This document shows, piece by piece, positions 6,496 through 50,040 of a stretch of 64,000 nt of DNA. Source of the DNA: Candidatus Eiseniibacteriota bacterium (GTDB lineage Bacteria; Eisenbacteria; RBG-16-71-46; JASEGR01); contig JASEGR010000001.1 in the NCBI GenBank assembly GCA_030017955.1, forward strand, positions 13,761-77,760, read 5' to 3'. The position numbers and the translations under genes are program-made. Within the stretch, counting starts at the first letter, position 1, and each line of letters starts with the position of its first letter. A model generated the notes under the pieces. That model saw only the letters and a program-made list of their open reading frames with translations. It did not search any database and was not told the DNA's origin.

Positions 6496-7134
6496 TCATT
6501 TTCGAGTTCCGCGGCCCCAAATATACTTATGCAGCTGGAGATTGAGCCTTACATCGAGGCCGTCCTCTAAGATCCAGTCTGCCAGCTTGCAAGGGTGGAG
6601 ACGTCCAAACGCACATGAAAACAGAACGTTACTCTTTTCTGTAAGCTTGTGTCTTCTTGTAACCTTCTTTGCCCACTCATAGTCAGCCCTGTCTTGGACT
6701 ACGAACTTAACCTCATCCTTATTTCCAATAAGCTTGAGATTTCTCCAGTTGACCCGCGCCGACTCTCCACTCCCGGGGCATTTTATGTCCACTATCTTCA
6801 CTGCCTTCTTGCTGAGTTTGGAAATGTCAACGGTCCCATTTGTCTCGACCAGAACTGTGAATTTCTTTTTCGTCAGAGCGCGGACGAGGTTCGGCGTTTC
6901 CTCTTGAAGAAGAGGCTCACCGCCCGTGATTTCAACAAGCTTAACGCCGCTTCTTCCGGCCTCGCGAAGGACTTCGTTGATAGTCATTTCCTGTCCACCC
7001 TCATAGGCATATCTCGAATCGCAGTAGGTGCACCGGAGATTGCATCCTGAAAGTCTTACGAATACGCATGGAAGCCCTTGAAAACTTGACTCGCCCTGAA
7101 TGCTCGTGAAGATTTCTTTGACCAGCAGGCTCAC
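6496..7134 (-). CDS. queE: 7-carboxy-7-deazaguanine synthase QueE (radical SAM)
   Basis: 212 aa. Radical SAM cluster motif [10 protein letters not shown] preceded by [20 protein letters not shown]. Confidence 0.85.
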
Positions 7135-7148
7135 TTCTCTTCCTTAGA

Positions 7149-7440
7149 CAAGGTAGCTCCCCTCTCCCCTCAAGAGAAAGCGAGGGACGAACACCAGGCA
7201 AGGTAGTCTCCCTCTCCCCCTCAAAGAAAGTGACGGACGAACACCAGACAAGGTAGCTCCCCTCTCCCCTCAAGAGAGAGCGAGGGATGAATACCAGACA
7301 AAGTAGTCTCCCTCTCTCCCCTAAAAGAAAGCGAGGGGCGAACACCAGACAAGGTAGCCTCCCTCTCCCCCTAAAAGAAAGCGAGGGGCGAATACCAGAC
7401 AAGGTAGTCTCCCTCTCCCCTTCGGGGAGAGGGTAGGGTG
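7149..7440. repeat. Tandem array of about six degenerate copies of a 50-51 bp unit (CAAGGTAGCTCCCCTCTCCCCTCAAGAGAAAGCGAGGGACGAACACCAGG)
   Basis: Unit starts at 7149, 7199, 7249, 7299, 7350 and 7400. Each unit contains a short inverted repeat (TCCCTC ... GAGGGA). The last unit runs into the palindromes at 7410-7466. The location is intergenic between queD and queE. Confidence 0.85.
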
Positions 7441-7466
7441 AGGGGGTCGGCCACGACCCCCTCATA
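7410..7466. repeat. Two adjacent GC-rich palindromes: CCCTCTCCCC-ttcg-GGGGAGAGGG-TAGGGTGAGGGG, then GGGGGTCG-gccA-CGACCCCC
   Basis: Perfect stems read directly from the sequence. The same elements recur at 12199-12218, 13519-13598 and 48781-48880. Confidence 0.8.
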
Positions 7467-7529: not shown

Positions 7530-7895
7530 CTAGGGGGAATATGTGACCGATTGCCCCTCGGATTCCCACACTGTGACTGACGTGAGTTTTGCCTTTCCAG
7601 AGAGCTTCTGTCGGTATTTCCGGAAAATGTGCGAGGCAATATGTTCGGAAGTCGGGTTTGTCTTGGAGAATTCTTCAAGCTCATTCAGGTATTTGTGGTC
7701 GAGCTGGTCTGTTACCTCTTTGAGAAGAGACTTCAGAGTCTCAAAATCAATGCTCATCCCGATTTGATTCAGCTCGTCCACCCGCACTGCAGCGGAAACT
7801 TTCCAGTTGTGTCCATGAAGCGCAGAACATTTTCCCTGGTATCCGACGAGGCGGTGTGCGCCCGAGAATCTTGAGTCAACTGAAATTGTGAACAC
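7530..7895 (-). CDS. queD: 6-carboxy-5,6,7,8-tetrahydropterin synthase QueD
   Basis: 121 aa. PTPS-family CxxxHGH motif (CSALHGHNW). It is clustered with queE and queC. Confidence 0.8.
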   Translation of the reverse strand: MFTISVDSRFSGAHRLVGYQGKCSALHGHNWKVSAAVRVDELNQIGMSIDFETLKSLLKEVTDQLDHKYLNELEEFSKTNPTSEHIASHIFRKYRQKLSGKAKLTSVTVWESEGQSVTYSP

Positions 7896-12132: not shown

Positions 12133-12218
12133 GTGCACCGTAACATAAATAAGTTGACGTTGACATTGCCCCAGAACGGTGCACTGCTCGGGCTTTTAGG
12201 GGGTCGAGCCCGACCCCC
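12133..12218. other. Structured intergenic region downstream of ftsZ: a long inverted repeat (GTGCACCGT ... ACGGTGCAC, 12133-12184) plus the palindrome GGGGGTCG-agc-CGACCCCC (12199-12218)
   Basis: The stems are visible directly. The second palindrome is the same element as 7443-7466. It may act as a terminator for ftsZ, but no U-run follows it. Confidence 0.4.
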
Positions 12219-12337
12219 TAAGGGGTTACAGTTGCGAAAGTTGCCGGTGGCAAGTTTCGAAATGTCATAGGGGCGATAGCCCCTGTGAAAGTGCTGGGGC
12301 ACCGCATAATAAGTTCGCGAATTTATGTGACACAGCA

Positions 12338-13492
12338 CTAGTCGCGCCTCCTCATGAAAGTCGGGATCTCAAGCTCATCCTTTCCTGCAACCTTATTCCA
12401 TTTCTTCTCCCTGAGTCCAAGGGAATTGAGGAGTTCTTCCTTCCTCCTGGAATCAGGCCTTCTCAGGCTCTCCTGACCCAAAGGTAGCTCAAGATGCTCC
12501 TTGGTTTCAACTAATTCTATCTTGGGTTCTCCATTCTTGCCGAACCCTGTGGCAATGACCGTGATCTTGAGCATATCCTTCATCGAGTCGTCAATGACGG
12601 CACCAAAGAGCACGTTTGCATCAGTACCCGCCGCCTCCGTTATCACGTTCGCGGCATCATTGACTTCGTGCAGCGTCAGGTCGGCGCCGCCCGTGATATT
12701 CACAAGCACTGCTTCAGCACCGGCCACGGAAACCTCTTCAAGAAGCGGACTTGAAATTGCCGCCTTTGCCGCATCAATTGCCCTGGTGGGACCCTTGCCT
12801 ACTCCGGTCCCCATAAGAGCATTTCCCTTCTCCAGCATGACGGAGCGCACATCGGCAAAGTCCAGGTTCACCAGTCCGGGCGTCGTGATCAGCTCTGAGA
12901 TTCCCCTTGCCGCCTGATGAAGTACTTCATCGGCCATCCTGAAGGCCTGCGTGAGCGTCGTCTCGCGCTCCACGACCGAAATGAGCCGTTGGTTCGGAAT
13001 CACAATAAGAGTATCAACCTCTTTCCCAAGTTCGAGAAGTCCCTCATCGGCTTGTCTCATCCTGGTCTTCCCTTCGAATTCGAAAGGCTTAGTAACTATC
13101 GCAACAGTCAGTGCCCCCATTGACCTGGCCACTGCGGCGACTACGGGAGCGCCGCCGGTGCCTGTCCCCCCGCCCATACCGGCTGTCACAAAGACCATGT
13201 CTGCGCCCTGGACTGCCTCAACGATGAGATCCTCATCTTCCTCGGTTGCCCTTTTCCCAATCTCAGGATCGCCCCCGGAGCCAAGTCCCTTCGTGAGCTT
13301 CGTCCCTAACTGAATCTTTTTGCAGGCACTTGACCGTGCCAGGGCCTGGCAATCTGTGTTTGCGACCATGAAGTCAACGTTTGAGAGCCCTGCTTCAACC
13401 ATTCTGTCTACAGCATTGCCTCCTGCCCCGCCGATTCCGATCACCCTGATTGTTGCGTTCTGTATGTTCTCCTCATCAAACTCGAAAATCAT
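12338..13492 (-). CDS. ftsZ: Cell division GTPase FtsZ
   Basis: 384 aa. Tubulin signature GGGTGTGGAP and an N-terminal IRVIGIGGAGGNAV. Confidence 0.95.
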   Translation of the reverse strand: MIFEFDEENIQNATIRVIGIGGAGGNAVDRMVEAGLSNVDFMVANTDCQALARSSACKKIQLGTKLTKGLGSGGDPEIGKRATEEDEDLIVEAVQGADMVFVTAGMGGGTGTGGAPVVAAVARSMGALTVAIVTKPFEFEGKTRMRQADEGLLELGKEVDTLIVIPNQRLISVVERETTLTQAFRMADEVLHQAARGISELITTPGLVNLDFADVRSVMLEKGNALMGTGVGKGPTRAIDAAKAAISSPLLEEVSVAGAEAVLVNITGGADLTLHEVNDAANVITEAAGTDANVLFGAVIDDSMKDMLKITVIATGFGKNGEPKIELVETKEHLELPLGQESLRRPDSRRKEELLNSLGLREKKWNKVAGKDELEIPTFMRRRD

Positions 13493-13518: not shown

Positions 13519-13598
13519 CCCCTCACCCTACCCTCTCCCCATGGGGGAGAGGGAAACGGGGTCGACACTCTCTCCCCATGGGGGAGAGGGAAGCGGGG
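13519..13598. repeat. Two copies of the palindromic element (C)CCTCTCCCC-atg-GGGGAGAGGG with flanking CCCTCACCCTA or A(A/G)CGGGG
   Basis: Located in the ftsA-ftsZ intergenic region. Same family as 7410-7450 and 48781-48880. Copy 1 is in the inverse orientation. Confidence 0.8.
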
Positions 13599-13624: not shown

Positions 13625-14854
13625 CTACGAAACAAGACTCTTCACCCATCTTCCTAATCCTCCGCCCAGTTTTCCGAGGACACCTTTCCCGTCTGCGCCC
13701 GAAGGAGCGCCGCTCTCGACAGCATGAATCACAAGTCCAACTGCTGTTGAGAATCTTGGGTCGCTGACGGCATCAATCAGTCCTCCAACTCCCTTCGGAA
13801 TTCCTCTCCTAGCCGGCATCTCAAAGATACGTTCGGAGAGCTCGGGGACACCTTCCATCGAAGATGCTCCCCCGGTAACAACAACTCCTGCCCCAAGAAG
13901 GTCTGCGAAGTGCTGCTTCTTTACCTCCCTCAGGGCAAGGTTGAATATCTCCTCCATCCTTGGTTCTATCATCGAGCTCAAGACATGCCTTGATATTTCT
14001 CTGGGCGGCCTGCCCCCGACACTTGGCACGGTCACTGCCTCTCCGGCTCCGACTGCTGAACTCAGGGCGCAGCCGTGCTGAATCTTCAACTGCTCCGCCT
14101 TGTCAATCGGCGTTCTCAGGCCTATTGCGATATCGTTCGTTACATTCGAGCCTCCAAGGCCTATTACGACAGTGTGCCTTATGCTTCCATCATGGAAGAT
14201 CGCAACGTCAGTCGTACCGCCGCCTATGTCAACGAGCACAACGCCGAGGTTTATCTCATCATCTTCGAGGACGGCTTTGCTTGACGCGATTGGCTGGAGG
14301 ATCAGGTCCTCGACTTTCAGTCCCGCCCTCTGAATGCTTCTCACGACATTCTTTGCGGACGTCACCGCACCCGTGACAATGTGGACCTCAGCTTCAAGTC
14401 TCACACCCGACATGCCGACAGGGTCTTTGATCCCGTCCTGATCGTCCACAATGAACTCCTGAGGAATCACATGAATTATCTCTCTGTCCATGGGAATGGC
14501 TACGGCCTTGGCTGCTTCGATCACCCTCCTGACATCATTCTCGCCTATCTCATTGTCTTTTCTCGAGACGGCAATCACCCCTCTTGAGTTTATGCTTCTT
14601 ATGTGATCGCCCGCGATGCCCGCATAGATCGATTTGATCTCGACGCCTGCCATTCGCTCAGCCTCTTCCACGGCACGCTCAATCGAATGAACAGTCTTCT
14701 CGAGGTTGACCACAACGCCCCTTCTCAGGCCGTCAGACGGTCCAGTCCCCACGCCCACGATGTTTATCTCGTTGTTGTCGTCAACCTCGGCAATGATCAC
14801 GCCTATCTTTGTCGTGCCGATGTCAAGAGCTGAAATGGTCTTTGTCGTGCCCAC
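13625..14854 (-). CDS. ftsA: Cell division protein FtsA (actin-like ATPase)
   Basis: 409 aa. N-terminal ALDIGTTKIGVIIAEV phosphate-binding motif. It is followed by ftsZ. Confidence 0.9.
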   Translation of the reverse strand: MGTTKTISALDIGTTKIGVIIAEVDDNNEINIVGVGTGPSDGLRRGVVVNLEKTVHSIERAVEEAERMAGVEIKSIYAGIAGDHIRSINSRGVIAVSRKDNEIGENDVRRVIEAAKAVAIPMDREIIHVIPQEFIVDDQDGIKDPVGMSGVRLEAEVHIVTGAVTSAKNVVRSIQRAGLKVEDLILQPIASSKAVLEDDEINLGVVLVDIGGGTTDVAIFHDGSIRHTVVIGLGGSNVTNDIAIGLRTPIDKAEQLKIQHGCALSSAVGAGEAVTVPSVGGRPPREISRHVLSSMIEPRMEEIFNLALREVKKQHFADLLGAGVVVTGGASSMEGVPELSERIFEMPARRGIPKGVGGLIDAVSDPRFSTAVGLVIHAVESGAPSGADGKGVLGKLGGGLGRWVKSLVS

Positions 14855-48780: not shown

Positions 48781-48880
48781 CCCTCACCAGCCTCTCCCCA
48801 TTGGGGAGAGGGTCAGGGTGAGGGGAACCTCAAGCCCTCTATCACCCTCTCCCCTCTGGGGAGAGGGTTAGGGTGAGGGG
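48781..48880. repeat. Two copies of the palindromic element CCCTCTCCCC-N3/4-GGGGAGAGGG-T(C/T)AGGGTGAGGGG
   Basis: The two copies are ccctcaccagcctctccccattggggagagggtcagggtgagggg and caccctctcccctctggggagagggttagggtgagggg. Same family as 7410-7450 and 13519-13598. Confidence 0.8.
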
Positions 48881-50040
48881 CGCCCCACCAGTCCCTCGTA
48901 CAGCCCCTCCATCTTCAGCATCCACTGTGCATGATCGGCTTTCTCCCTGACGAGCGAGTAGTTTGCCTCCCGGCTACTGTTTCTCGTTGGCTCGTTTTTC
49001 AGCACAGTCAGTATCGAATCAGCCAGGGATTCCGGCGACTTGTCTCGCGGAAAGATAGCATTCACGCCCGGGGTAAACCATTCACGCACCGAAGGAAGGT
49101 CACTTAGTACCGGGACTGCACCGCAGGCAATCCCTTCGAGAACACTTATTGGCATGCTGTCACTATCCGGTATGGACACCACAACATCGGCAGCCGAATA
49201 ATAGAGTGGCATTTTGTCGTAAGGAACTTCTTCCTGGAAAACAATAGAGCCGCCTATCTTGAGCTCCCCAGCAATTCTCTCCATCTCAAGGCAGAATGAA
49301 TCCTTGGATTCCTGAGAGCGCGGGCCTTTCAAGACAAGTTTTGCCGAGGGGAACTCTTTCAGAACTCTTGGGAATGCACGAAGAATGGTCTCAACGTTGA
49401 AAAGTGCTTTCATCGCTCTTGGACTGAACACTACTGGGCCATCGCCAAGTCCTAACTCCTGCCGAAGCGAGCGTGCATCGATTCCCGGCCGGAAAAGTTC
49501 GAGGTCAACACCCCAGTGAATCAGTTCGATCTTATCCTTCGGAACACCTGCCGCCTGAAATGCACTTCTTCCCCTTTCTGTCTCGGTCGTTATGAGATCG
49601 GCCTTTCTCGCGGTGTAGCCGAATAGAAACTTGTTCAGCCGTCTTCTGTACGGCTCAAGAAACATATCTGAGCCCCAGCCCGTGAGCACAAAAGGATGGA
49701 AATTCGCGAGCGCCCCGGCCCAGCCGTACTGAGTCACGTAATGTGAGTGGAGAATGTCCGGCGATATCTCCTTCAAGATTCTCTTTATCTTTGGCAGGTT
49801 TTTGTAGGCGCTTGTCCTCGGGAAGGGACGAAGCGAAATGTCGATTTCAGTTATTCCCCCGATATTCCCTGGGACGGATGTCATGAGATAGACGTCGTGG
49901 CCTCTTTTCTTGAAAAACGAGAGCCACCGTTTTGTGTGGATACTGTCCCCTACTGCAAGGTAGCAGAGTTTCAAGTAGTCCCTGTCTCCCACACTAGCAT
50001 CGTGTTTTTCATCAAGACCGGGGCTTGAGTCTTCGCGCAC
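48868..50040 (-). CDS. Glycosyltransferase family 4
   Basis: 390 aa. GT-B C-terminal domain with EGIACGAVPVLSDL. Confidence 0.8.
   Translation of the reverse strand: MREDSSPGLDEKHDASVGDRDYLKLCYLAVGDSIHTKRWLSFFKKRGHDVYLMTSVPGNIGGITEIDISLRPFPRTSAYKNLPKIKRILKEISPDILHSHYVTQYGWAGALANFHPFVLTGWGSDMFLEPYRRRLNKFLFGYTARKADLITTETERGRSAFQAAGVPKDKIELIHWGVDLELFRPGIDARSLRQELGLGDGPVVFSPRAMKALFNVETILRAFPRVLKEFPSAKLVLKGPRSQESKDSFCLEMERIAGELKIGGSIVFQEEVPYDKMPLYYSAADVVVSIPDSDSMPISVLEGIACGAVPVLSDLPSVREWFTPGVNAIFPRDKSPESLADSILTVLKNEPTRNSSREANYSLVREKADHAQWMLKMEGLYEGLVGRPSP

Follow-up and report, generated by a model that had tools for sequence, protein, structure and literature searches.

Hairpin repeats of the Box C/TM_ECO type in tandem form in a Candidatus Eisenbacteria contig, and their possible origin as solo ends of a DUF559 endonuclease element

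A stretch of 64,000 nucleotides of contig JASEGR010000001.1 (hereafter the window, taken at its full length), from a metagenome-assembled genome of Candidatus Eisenbacteria, carries five copies of a short, GC-rich hairpin repeat at three intergenic loci. Judged by their sequence, these copies almost certainly belong to the family described as Box C (Bergler 1992; Bachellier et al.), as the PIT element (Hoyne and Maher 2000, 2002) and as TM_ECO (Holder et al. 2015, PMC4666352). Box C/TM_ECO is hereby extended beyond Proteobacteria: a known repeat appears in a new host phylum and in an unusual tandem form, all three loci being local tandem duplications. In other genomes, small genes encoding a DUF559 endonuclease are bracketed by repeats of the same type. 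The reading that we favour joins these observations, such that the window copies would be members of the Box C family, would descend from solo ends of a DUF559 element and would then have been amplified locally in tandem; taken as a whole, we give this reading slightly better than even chances of being right.

Copies in the window were sought with the pattern CCCTCTCCCC-N3-5-GGGGAGAGGG, the chance level being taken from 100 shuffles. Exact matches lie at 7411-7433, 13531-13553 and 48845-48867, with no match in the 100 shuffles, and hairpins of the same repeat family with one mismatch lie at 13568-13590 (CTCTCTCCCC...) and 48790-48812 (GCCTCTCCCC...). This makes five hairpins of the CCCTCTCCCC-N3-GGGGAGAGGG type at three intergenic loci, every one with a 10-bp stem and a 3-nt loop (equivalent to 9 bp and a 5-nt loop), and four of the five continue into a tail, (T/TC/TT)AGGGTGAGGGG, whose AGGGTGAGGGG part occupies 7435-7445 (+), 13519-13529 (-), 48815-48825 (+) and 48870-48880 (+). 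A preliminary description of this DNA had reported a family of GC-rich palindromes at three loci, always between co-directional genes, and both statements are borne out: five copies stand against zero expected by chance, and every flanking gene is on the minus strand, as are nearly all genes of the window. In an alignment of the five copies the hairpin and the tail are common, the flanks are unrelated and the loops differ, and no target-site duplication was seen. Since loops and flanks differ among the copies, assembly duplication is excluded. The idea that we are looking at chance similarity or an assembly artefact has nothing in its favour other than a source that is a metagenome-assembled genome; the absence of matches in shuffled sequence, the differing loops and flanks, and the occurrence of the same element in thousands of finished genomes refute it for the dispersed copies, and we assign it next to no probability.

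Copy A (7411-7445, plus strand) lies between queD (7530-7895) and queE (6496-7134) and consists of the hairpin CCCTCTCCCC-TTC-GGGGAGAGGG (7411-7433) and the tail T-AGGGTGAGGGG (7434-7445). The second locus, between ftsA (13625-14854) and ftsZ (12338-13492), holds two copies on the minus strand. Copy B1 (13519-13553) places the full element, CCCTCTCCCC-CAT-GGGGAGAGGG-T-AGGGTGAGGGG, on the mRNA strand and ends 26 nt before the ATG of ftsZ and 12 nt before its Shine-Dalgarno sequence, while copy B2 (13568-13590) is the hairpin alone, without the G-rich tail, its right arm reading GGGGAGAGAG on the mRNA strand. The preliminary description was correct in counting two copies here but not in calling one of them inverted: they run in the same direction, as a direct repeat, B1 has the opposite orientation to the copies at the other two loci, and the tail is present in B1 and not in B2. 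At the third locus, between two glycosyltransferase genes, copy C1 (48780-48825, plus strand) reads CCCCTCACC-AG-CCTCTCCCC-ATT-GGGGAGAGG-GTCA-GGGTGAGGGG, with tails that flank it on both sides and make it a single long palindrome. Copy C2 (48845-48880, plus strand) reads CCCTCTCCCC-TCT-GGGGAGAGGG-TT-AGGGTGAGGGG and holds the TAA stop codon (48868-48870) and the last four codons (RPSP) of the glycosyltransferase gene 48868-50040; on the opposite strand, this stop codon is the TTA second loop of the copy.

The assignment of these copies to a family rests on a detailed match with the published definition of TM_ECO, CCCTCNCCC-N3-6-GGGNGAGGG-N3-GGGNGAGGG, which describes 23 intergenic copies in Escherichia coli K-12 and 3610 copies across 262 proteobacterial genomes (PMC4666352). 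The C-rich arm CCCTCNCCC is exact in A, B1 and C2 and has one mismatch in C1 (GCCTCTCCC) and in B2 (CTCTCTCCC). All five copies have a first loop of 3-6 nt followed by the complementary G arm GGGNGAGGG, and four of the five have the second G arm GGGNGAGGG, the potential third strand, which B2 lacks. The second loop is 3 nt long in C1 (TCA) and C2 (TTA) and 2 nt long (TA) in A and B1, a length that is also common in viral contigs and beside DUF559 genes. Copy C2 fits the TM_ECO pattern exactly, is one base off E. coli copy #9, and matches copies in Enterobacter hormaechei and Azospirillum brasilense with 100% identity over 36-37 nt; more generally, the window copies resemble the E. coli sequences in Table 1 of Holder et al. 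They thus share with the known family not only the sequence but also the three-block layout (C arm, G arm, second G arm), the combination of variable loops with invariant arms, the multicopy state, and an intergenic position with unrelated flanks at all three loci, save that the tail of C2 overlaps four codons and a stop.

There are, however, several differences. The host is a Candidatus Eisenbacteria metagenome-assembled genome, whereas the published survey covered 262 proteobacterial genomes. The arms in the window form perfect 10-bp stems, whereas those in E. coli often contain a G/A mismatch, and two window copies have a second loop of 2 nt instead of 3 nt. The window copies stand in direct tandem with periods of 37-55 bp, unlike the inverted pairs of types A and B in E. 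coli, and their density is five copies in 64 kb as opposed to 23 in the 4.6 Mb of E. coli K-12.

The sequence has the potential to form unusual structures. It has been described as a switch between G-quadruplex, hairpin and duplex (Kaplan et al. 2016, PMC5100583), and circular dichroism and nuclear magnetic resonance have shown that the E. coli sequences form both triplex and G-quadruplex (PMC4666352, PMC5100583). The G-rich part of the window copies is the published GGGAGAGGGTTAGGGTGAGGG motif, that is, four G3 tracts in a canonical G-quadruplex motif, with a C-rich partner on the 5' side competing for the first two G tracts. Sequence-based scoring gives the tails G4Hunter values of 2.2-2.4 and predicts G*G, A*A and T*A triads between the third arm and the purine arm, and the hairpins are predicted to be stable. 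The measured structures are those of the E. coli sequences; for the window variants they are predicted. Repeats of Methanomicrobiaceae (PMC8044849) are analogous, although their C tract lies on the 3' side and their sequence is different.

The family is widespread. In a plasmid collection, 914 records had a match, overwhelmingly from Alpha- and Gammaproteobacteria. Viral contigs were scanned with the pattern GGGAGAGGG-N1-2-AGGGTGAGGG, which represents the G-rich part, and at least 120 contained it; the complementary C-rich arm nearly always precedes, and the flanks are unrelated. Its distribution across bacteria is patchy: the ftsZ loci of 80 genomes from other phyla, 1.27 Mb in total, contained a single full copy, in a Thermodesulfobacteriota metagenome-assembled genome. 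It is part of an inverted pair (L199:17009-17125) of the design known from E. coli, in which a type A copy is followed by a palindromic spacer and a type-B-like copy, 6 kb from ftsZ.

The window copies have been duplicated in place. Between queD and queE, 5.4 units of 50 bp stand in tandem (7146-7421, plus strand), and this array ends in copy A, as the preliminary description had noted (copy at 7411-7445). The first part of each array unit, AAGGTAG(T)CTCCCTCTCCCC, is the left arm preceded by its 10 upstream bases, and the right half, AAGCGAGGG, is weakly complementary. With copy A the units share only the left arm and the preceding 10 bases, which places the boundary of the duplication at the hairpin apex of copy A. 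Copies C1 and C2 (48772-48880) form a 55-bp tandem repeat in two copies, and B1 and B2 form a 37-bp direct repeat in two copies with 91% identity; the 50-bp and 55-bp arrays are the sole tandem repeats of the window with a period of at least 22 bp. We considered the 50-bp units as decayed full copies and rejected the idea, as their 3' halves matched the right arm and tail no better than shuffles did (p about 0.5). By eye, the unit resembles the decayed hairpin at the stop codon of E. coli ycjD (CCCTCTCCC-TGAAA-GAGCGAGGG). The copy number of the 50-bp array, taken alone, could reflect an assembly effect. The region 7146-7421 folds strongly (z = -4.5), and a 154-codon open reading frame (ORF) that crosses the array (7001-7465, minus strand) looks spurious and, judged from consecutive protein accessions, is unannotated in the NCBI record.

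Evidence on the possible origin of these repeats comes from other genomes. A phage contig (L054) carries four copies within a terminase-portal-capsid module, and two of them bracket a small DUF559 gene (L054:1190-1830; Pfam, E = 2e-37). DUF559 is a Vsr-like PD-(D/E)XK endonuclease domain, grouped with Vsr and with a group I intron homing endonuclease (PDB 3r3p) (PMC3424549). Further repeat-bracketed DUF559 sites are found at L311:226-938, L313:295-767 and L218:1700-2270, the last being E. coli ycjD, and in loci L221-L308. On pSymB of Sinorhizobium meliloti, an "endonuclease domain-containing protein" is encoded between 114-nt inverted repeats (96% complementary) of two repeat units each; in Deinococcus proteolyticus, a DUF559 gene lies between 56-nt inverted repeats (95% complementary) of variant sequence and the same hairpin-plus-G-tail design; and Synechocystis, Azospirillum and Neisseria have related arrangements. 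In the plasmid collection, the genera with DUF559 matches overlap those with repeat matches.

A survey of 91 DUF559 genes in 88 loci, all from one subfamily and mostly from soil metagenomes, makes the association quantitative, albeit with an intergenic-versus-coding control that is approximate. Of the repeats in these loci, 97 are no farther than 300 nt from a DUF559 gene, a density of 1.21 per kb, while the remaining sequence has 24 (0.067 per kb). This is an 18-fold enrichment; a uniform spread would have put 22 near the genes. The placement is also regular: a hairpin-then-tail copy ends at a median of 14.5 nt before the start of the DUF559 protein (32 of 81 genes), and a tail-first copy begins at a median of 11 nt after its conserved core (28 of 82 genes). 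Of 72 genes, 21 had both flanking copies and 30 had one or both. A higher share of intergenic DNA near the genes can explain a few-fold of the enrichment, but not the fixed distances and orientations. Many DUF559 proteins are encoded on contigs of 0.5-2 kb, as expected if assemblies break at flanking repeats.

Among 30 relatives of the DUF559 protein of the phage contig, most have C-terminal peptides such as PLTLPSPQRGEG or RPSP*, because their ORFs read into the repeat, tail-first, and the window glycosyltransferase (48868-50040) ends in RPSP* because it too reads into a repeat. In E. coli K-12, the DUF559 gene examined, ycjD, adjoins fabI, the site at which Box C was first described; TM_ECO #9 follows ycjD at a distance of 168 nt, and the end of ycjD itself (...RRSPSP*) falls in a decayed copy whose loop contains the stop codon. 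The four tails-inward inverted pairs of E. coli always combine a type A with a type B copy, with spacers of 16, 26, 27 and 27 nt. They look like gene-less derivatives, since spacers near 25 nt (14.5 + 11) are expected once the ORF is removed.

These arrangements suggest that the repeats of this family are what bounds a DUF559 endonuclease element, the window copies being orphaned ends of it, a proposition that we place at about even odds or a shade below. The repeat is a unit of about 36 nt in which a C-rich/G-rich hairpin of 9-10 bp is followed by a second G-rich arm. In single-stranded DNA, this second arm can fold back as the third strand of a purine-motif triplex, or, as an alternative fold, the two G-rich arms can make a G-quadruplex. 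Two such repeats in inverted orientation would bound a very small selfish element with a single gene, that of the DUF559 (Vsr-like, PD-(D/E)XK) endonuclease, and the window copies would be non-autonomous solo ends of such terminal inverted repeats, multiplied by tandem duplication on site, possibly through replication slippage or template switching promoted by the hairpin. The more specific version, in which Box C/PIT/TM_ECO comprises the terminal inverted repeats of a selfish DUF559 element of about 450-700 bp together with orphan derivatives akin to miniature inverted-repeat transposable elements (MITEs), the endonuclease recognises the hairpin or triplex, and the Eisenbacteria copies result from cross-phylum spread followed by tandem amplification, falls a little short of even in our estimation.

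This proposal has parallels among known elements. The arrangement in S. meliloti and Deinococcus, one small gene between inverted repeats of 114 and 56 nt, respectively, resembles a MITE or a small insertion sequence, and the gene-less inverted pairs of E. coli resemble internally deleted copies; the inverted terminal repeats around a gene occur in other genomes, whereas the window has solo or tandem repeats. Unlike small insertion sequences, the DUF559 loci involve no transposase of a known family, and no target-site duplication was seen; their mobility is putative. Free-standing homing endonuclease genes with a Vsr fold (PMC3424549) provide a second parallel, in that DUF559 is grouped with Vsr and with the enzyme of PDB 3r3p and that the repeat-flanked gene of the phage contig lies between the terminase and portal genes, but neither a homing site nor a setting in an intron or intein came to light, and homing endonuclease genes normally lack terminal inverted repeats.

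Several observations weigh against the favoured reading as a whole. The window contains neither a DUF559 gene nor a remnant of one, which leaves family membership as the only link between DUF559 and the window copies. Among the 120 repeat-bearing viral loci listed, a single one, the phage contig described above, has a DUF559 gene, and a canonical copy is in the expected position at 42% of the DUF559 genes for which both flanks are available. The survey covers one subfamily, drawn mostly from soil metagenomes, and its control is approximate. The triplex is stable in vitro, but none was detected in vivo (Holder et al., PMC4666352). At two E. coli loci, we found neither a clean pair of filled and empty sites nor a target-site duplication: the alleles of tauD-hemB differ over the entire spacer, and in O157:H7 the replacement at fabI-ycjD covers a larger segment. 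Nor do the repeats seem to be linked with tandem arrays in general. Of 137 copies in viral contigs, four (3%) touch a tandem array, compared to a background of 1%, and one of the four is a low-complexity sequence rather than a true copy, such that a general link was rejected. Finally, causation may run in more than one way: DUF559 may spread the repeats, may home into repeat pairs or may act on them for the host.

Some details of these loci deserve mention. Three alleles occur at tauD-hemB (L214/L215/L216). In K-12 the spacer measures 106 bp and contains the repeat; a second allele has 39 bp of unrelated sequence with another hairpin; and the third is K-12-like but has 51 bp inserted directly before the repeat. 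Two metagenome loci contain full repeats in series: six copies with a 42-nt period at L247:2-232, in a locus that also holds a DUF559 match, and three copies with a 49-nt period at L304:1265-1383, directly after the DUF559 core.

The strongest competing explanation dispenses with a protein partner. As in the view of Holder et al., the repeat would be a purely structural, non-B-DNA sequence that persists and spreads through recombination and errors of replication and makes its surroundings unstable. Such a reading agrees with the tandem duplications at all three window loci, with the raised variability reported around E. coli copies (PMC4666352) and with the rearrangement of tauD-hemB and fabI-ycjD between strains. 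It leaves unexplained, however, why one 36-nt sequence should be identical across phyla and why the repeats should have a fixed position and an inverted orientation around DUF559 genes, and beyond the window the repeats are only weakly associated with tandem arrays. We consider it rather unlikely. For the window arrays, structure-promoted slippage is a reasonable but unproven mechanism.

The preliminary description had recognised in these copies the signature of repetitive extragenic palindromes (REPs) and bacterial interspersed mosaic elements (BIMEs). As far as a dispersed, extragenic family of GC-rich palindromes is concerned this was correct, but the assignment to that family was not. The copies are indeed short, GC-rich, extragenic and multicopy, and sometimes clustered, and if the link to DUF559 holds, the resemblance goes further, as many orphan repeats would then coexist with a rare gene flanked by inverted copies. 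REPs, however, are lineage-specific, whereas the sequence studied here is common to several phyla, with identical copies in Enterobacter and Azospirillum and a wide occurrence among plasmids and viral contigs. REPs also lack the third, G-rich segment that is present here. The clustered copies are direct tandem repeats rather than the alternating orientations of BIMEs. Moreover, a RAYT-type (IS200-like) transposase, which the preliminary description had proposed to look for, was not found, nor was any other Y1 or further transposase, in the scan of about 40 of the 51 long window ORFs against Pfam, and the gene that the repeats bracket in other genomes encodes a PD-(D/E)XK endonuclease of the DUF559 type instead of a Y1 transposase. 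A REP/BIME family spread by a RAYT is thus close to refuted, and we give it only a very small residual probability. The repeats may nevertheless have a dedicated enzyme partner, as the preliminary description had imagined, but in the form of a DUF559 endonuclease rather than a RAYT.

A role of the copies in RNA has to be weighed as well. They might be elements selected by the host, with the hairpin protecting or processing polycistronic mRNA and, at B1, a hairpin/G-quadruplex switch tuning the translation of ftsZ. Every copy is located within an apparent operon, where the neighbouring genes point the same way; folded as RNA, the hairpins have a very high predicted stability; and B1 ends, as given above, 26 nt before the ftsZ start. 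RNA G-quadruplexes in 5' untranslated regions are reported to be able to raise translation in E. coli (PMC11087576). Yet the mRNA of A, C1 and C2 carries the C-rich tail because the genes are on the minus strand, so that three of the four tailed copies give the mRNA the C-rich strand and B1 alone puts a G-rich tail into it. A terminator, one of the roles suggested by the preliminary description, is not indicated: GC-rich hairpins followed by a T-run were sought on both strands with a consensus scan, and no copy has such a run on either strand or coincides with a terminator match. Likewise, in Rfam there was no match at the gathering score, and the scan by E-value returned only sub-threshold models of eukaryotic miRNA hairpins, so that membership in an Rfam family was rejected for lack of a meaningful match. 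The E. coli copies are reported to have no promoter or terminator activity and no bias in orientation, distance or gene class, and a raised sequence variability around them (PMC4666352), and over hundreds of occurrences the flanks and host genes are unrelated.

Comparison with related contigs points in the same direction. The spacer between ftsA and ftsZ is 132 bp long in the window as opposed to 34-82 bp, free of the element, in three other Eisenbacteria contigs, and the spacer between ftsZ and a TPR gene is 257 bp long as opposed to 52 bp in one syntenic contig. Because these distant Eisenbacteria, with FtsZ 59-66% identical, lack the element in the same spacer, the elements are additions in the lineage of the window rather than conserved regulators. 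An effect of B1 on the translation of ftsZ is possible but unsupported, and a host-selected RNA element in general appears unlikely to us, more so than the structural repeat discussed above. The search for close relatives that would allow an orthologous comparison found none, the next-best FtsZ proteins outside the window source being those with 59-66% identity, several of them also labelled Eisenbacteria, and contig L208 being unrelated upstream.

Since the 1990s, Box C/PIT/TM_ECO has not been known to have a function or a mode of spread, and in the literature searched, no paper connected DUF559 with these repeats. Should a DUF559 element indeed end in these repeats, a candidate enzyme, YcjD, would become available for an E. 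coli repeat that has been an orphan for 30 years, and a very common "endonuclease domain-containing protein" would gain a role. The genome instability reported around the repeats would gain a testable cause, and annotators would be warned that C-terminal peptides such as PLTLPSPQRGEG or RPSP are read-through of the repeat. Independently of this, a tandem-amplified form of Box C inside essential operons (queD-queE, ftsA-ftsZ) is unusual.

Two further features of the window concern its source and its other repeats. Seven proteins encoded in the window match NCBI proteins in the series MDI6807364-MDI6807397, from a Candidatus Eisenbacteria metagenome-assembled genome, exactly. The G+C content of the window is 50-54%, compared to 69-72% in L209-L211, contigs labelled as or related to Candidatus Eisenbacteria; together with the low FtsZ identity, this gap suggests that the source lineage is poorly sampled or that the phylum label is loose. 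The preliminary description had also pointed to a second palindrome at two sites. It exists, in the form GGGGGTCG-N4-CGACCCCC at 7442-7461 and 12199-12218 (zero expected by chance), with a loop of 4 nt and not of 3 nt. Its arms reach 11 nt, giving a first copy at 7439-7464 (TGAGGGGGTCG-GCCA-CGACCCCCTCA), whose left arm overlaps the G-rich tail of copy A, and a second at 12196-12221 (TTAGGGGGTCG-AGCC-CGACCCCCTAA), in the 257-bp spacer between ftsZ and the TPR gene; the consensus is T(G/T)AGGGGGTCG-N4-CGACCCCCT(C/A)A. Elsewhere it was found in seven viral contigs only, and we rejected it as a widespread family in favour of a local feature in two copies. A related sequence, GGGGTCGAC, follows the hairpins between ftsA and ftsZ.

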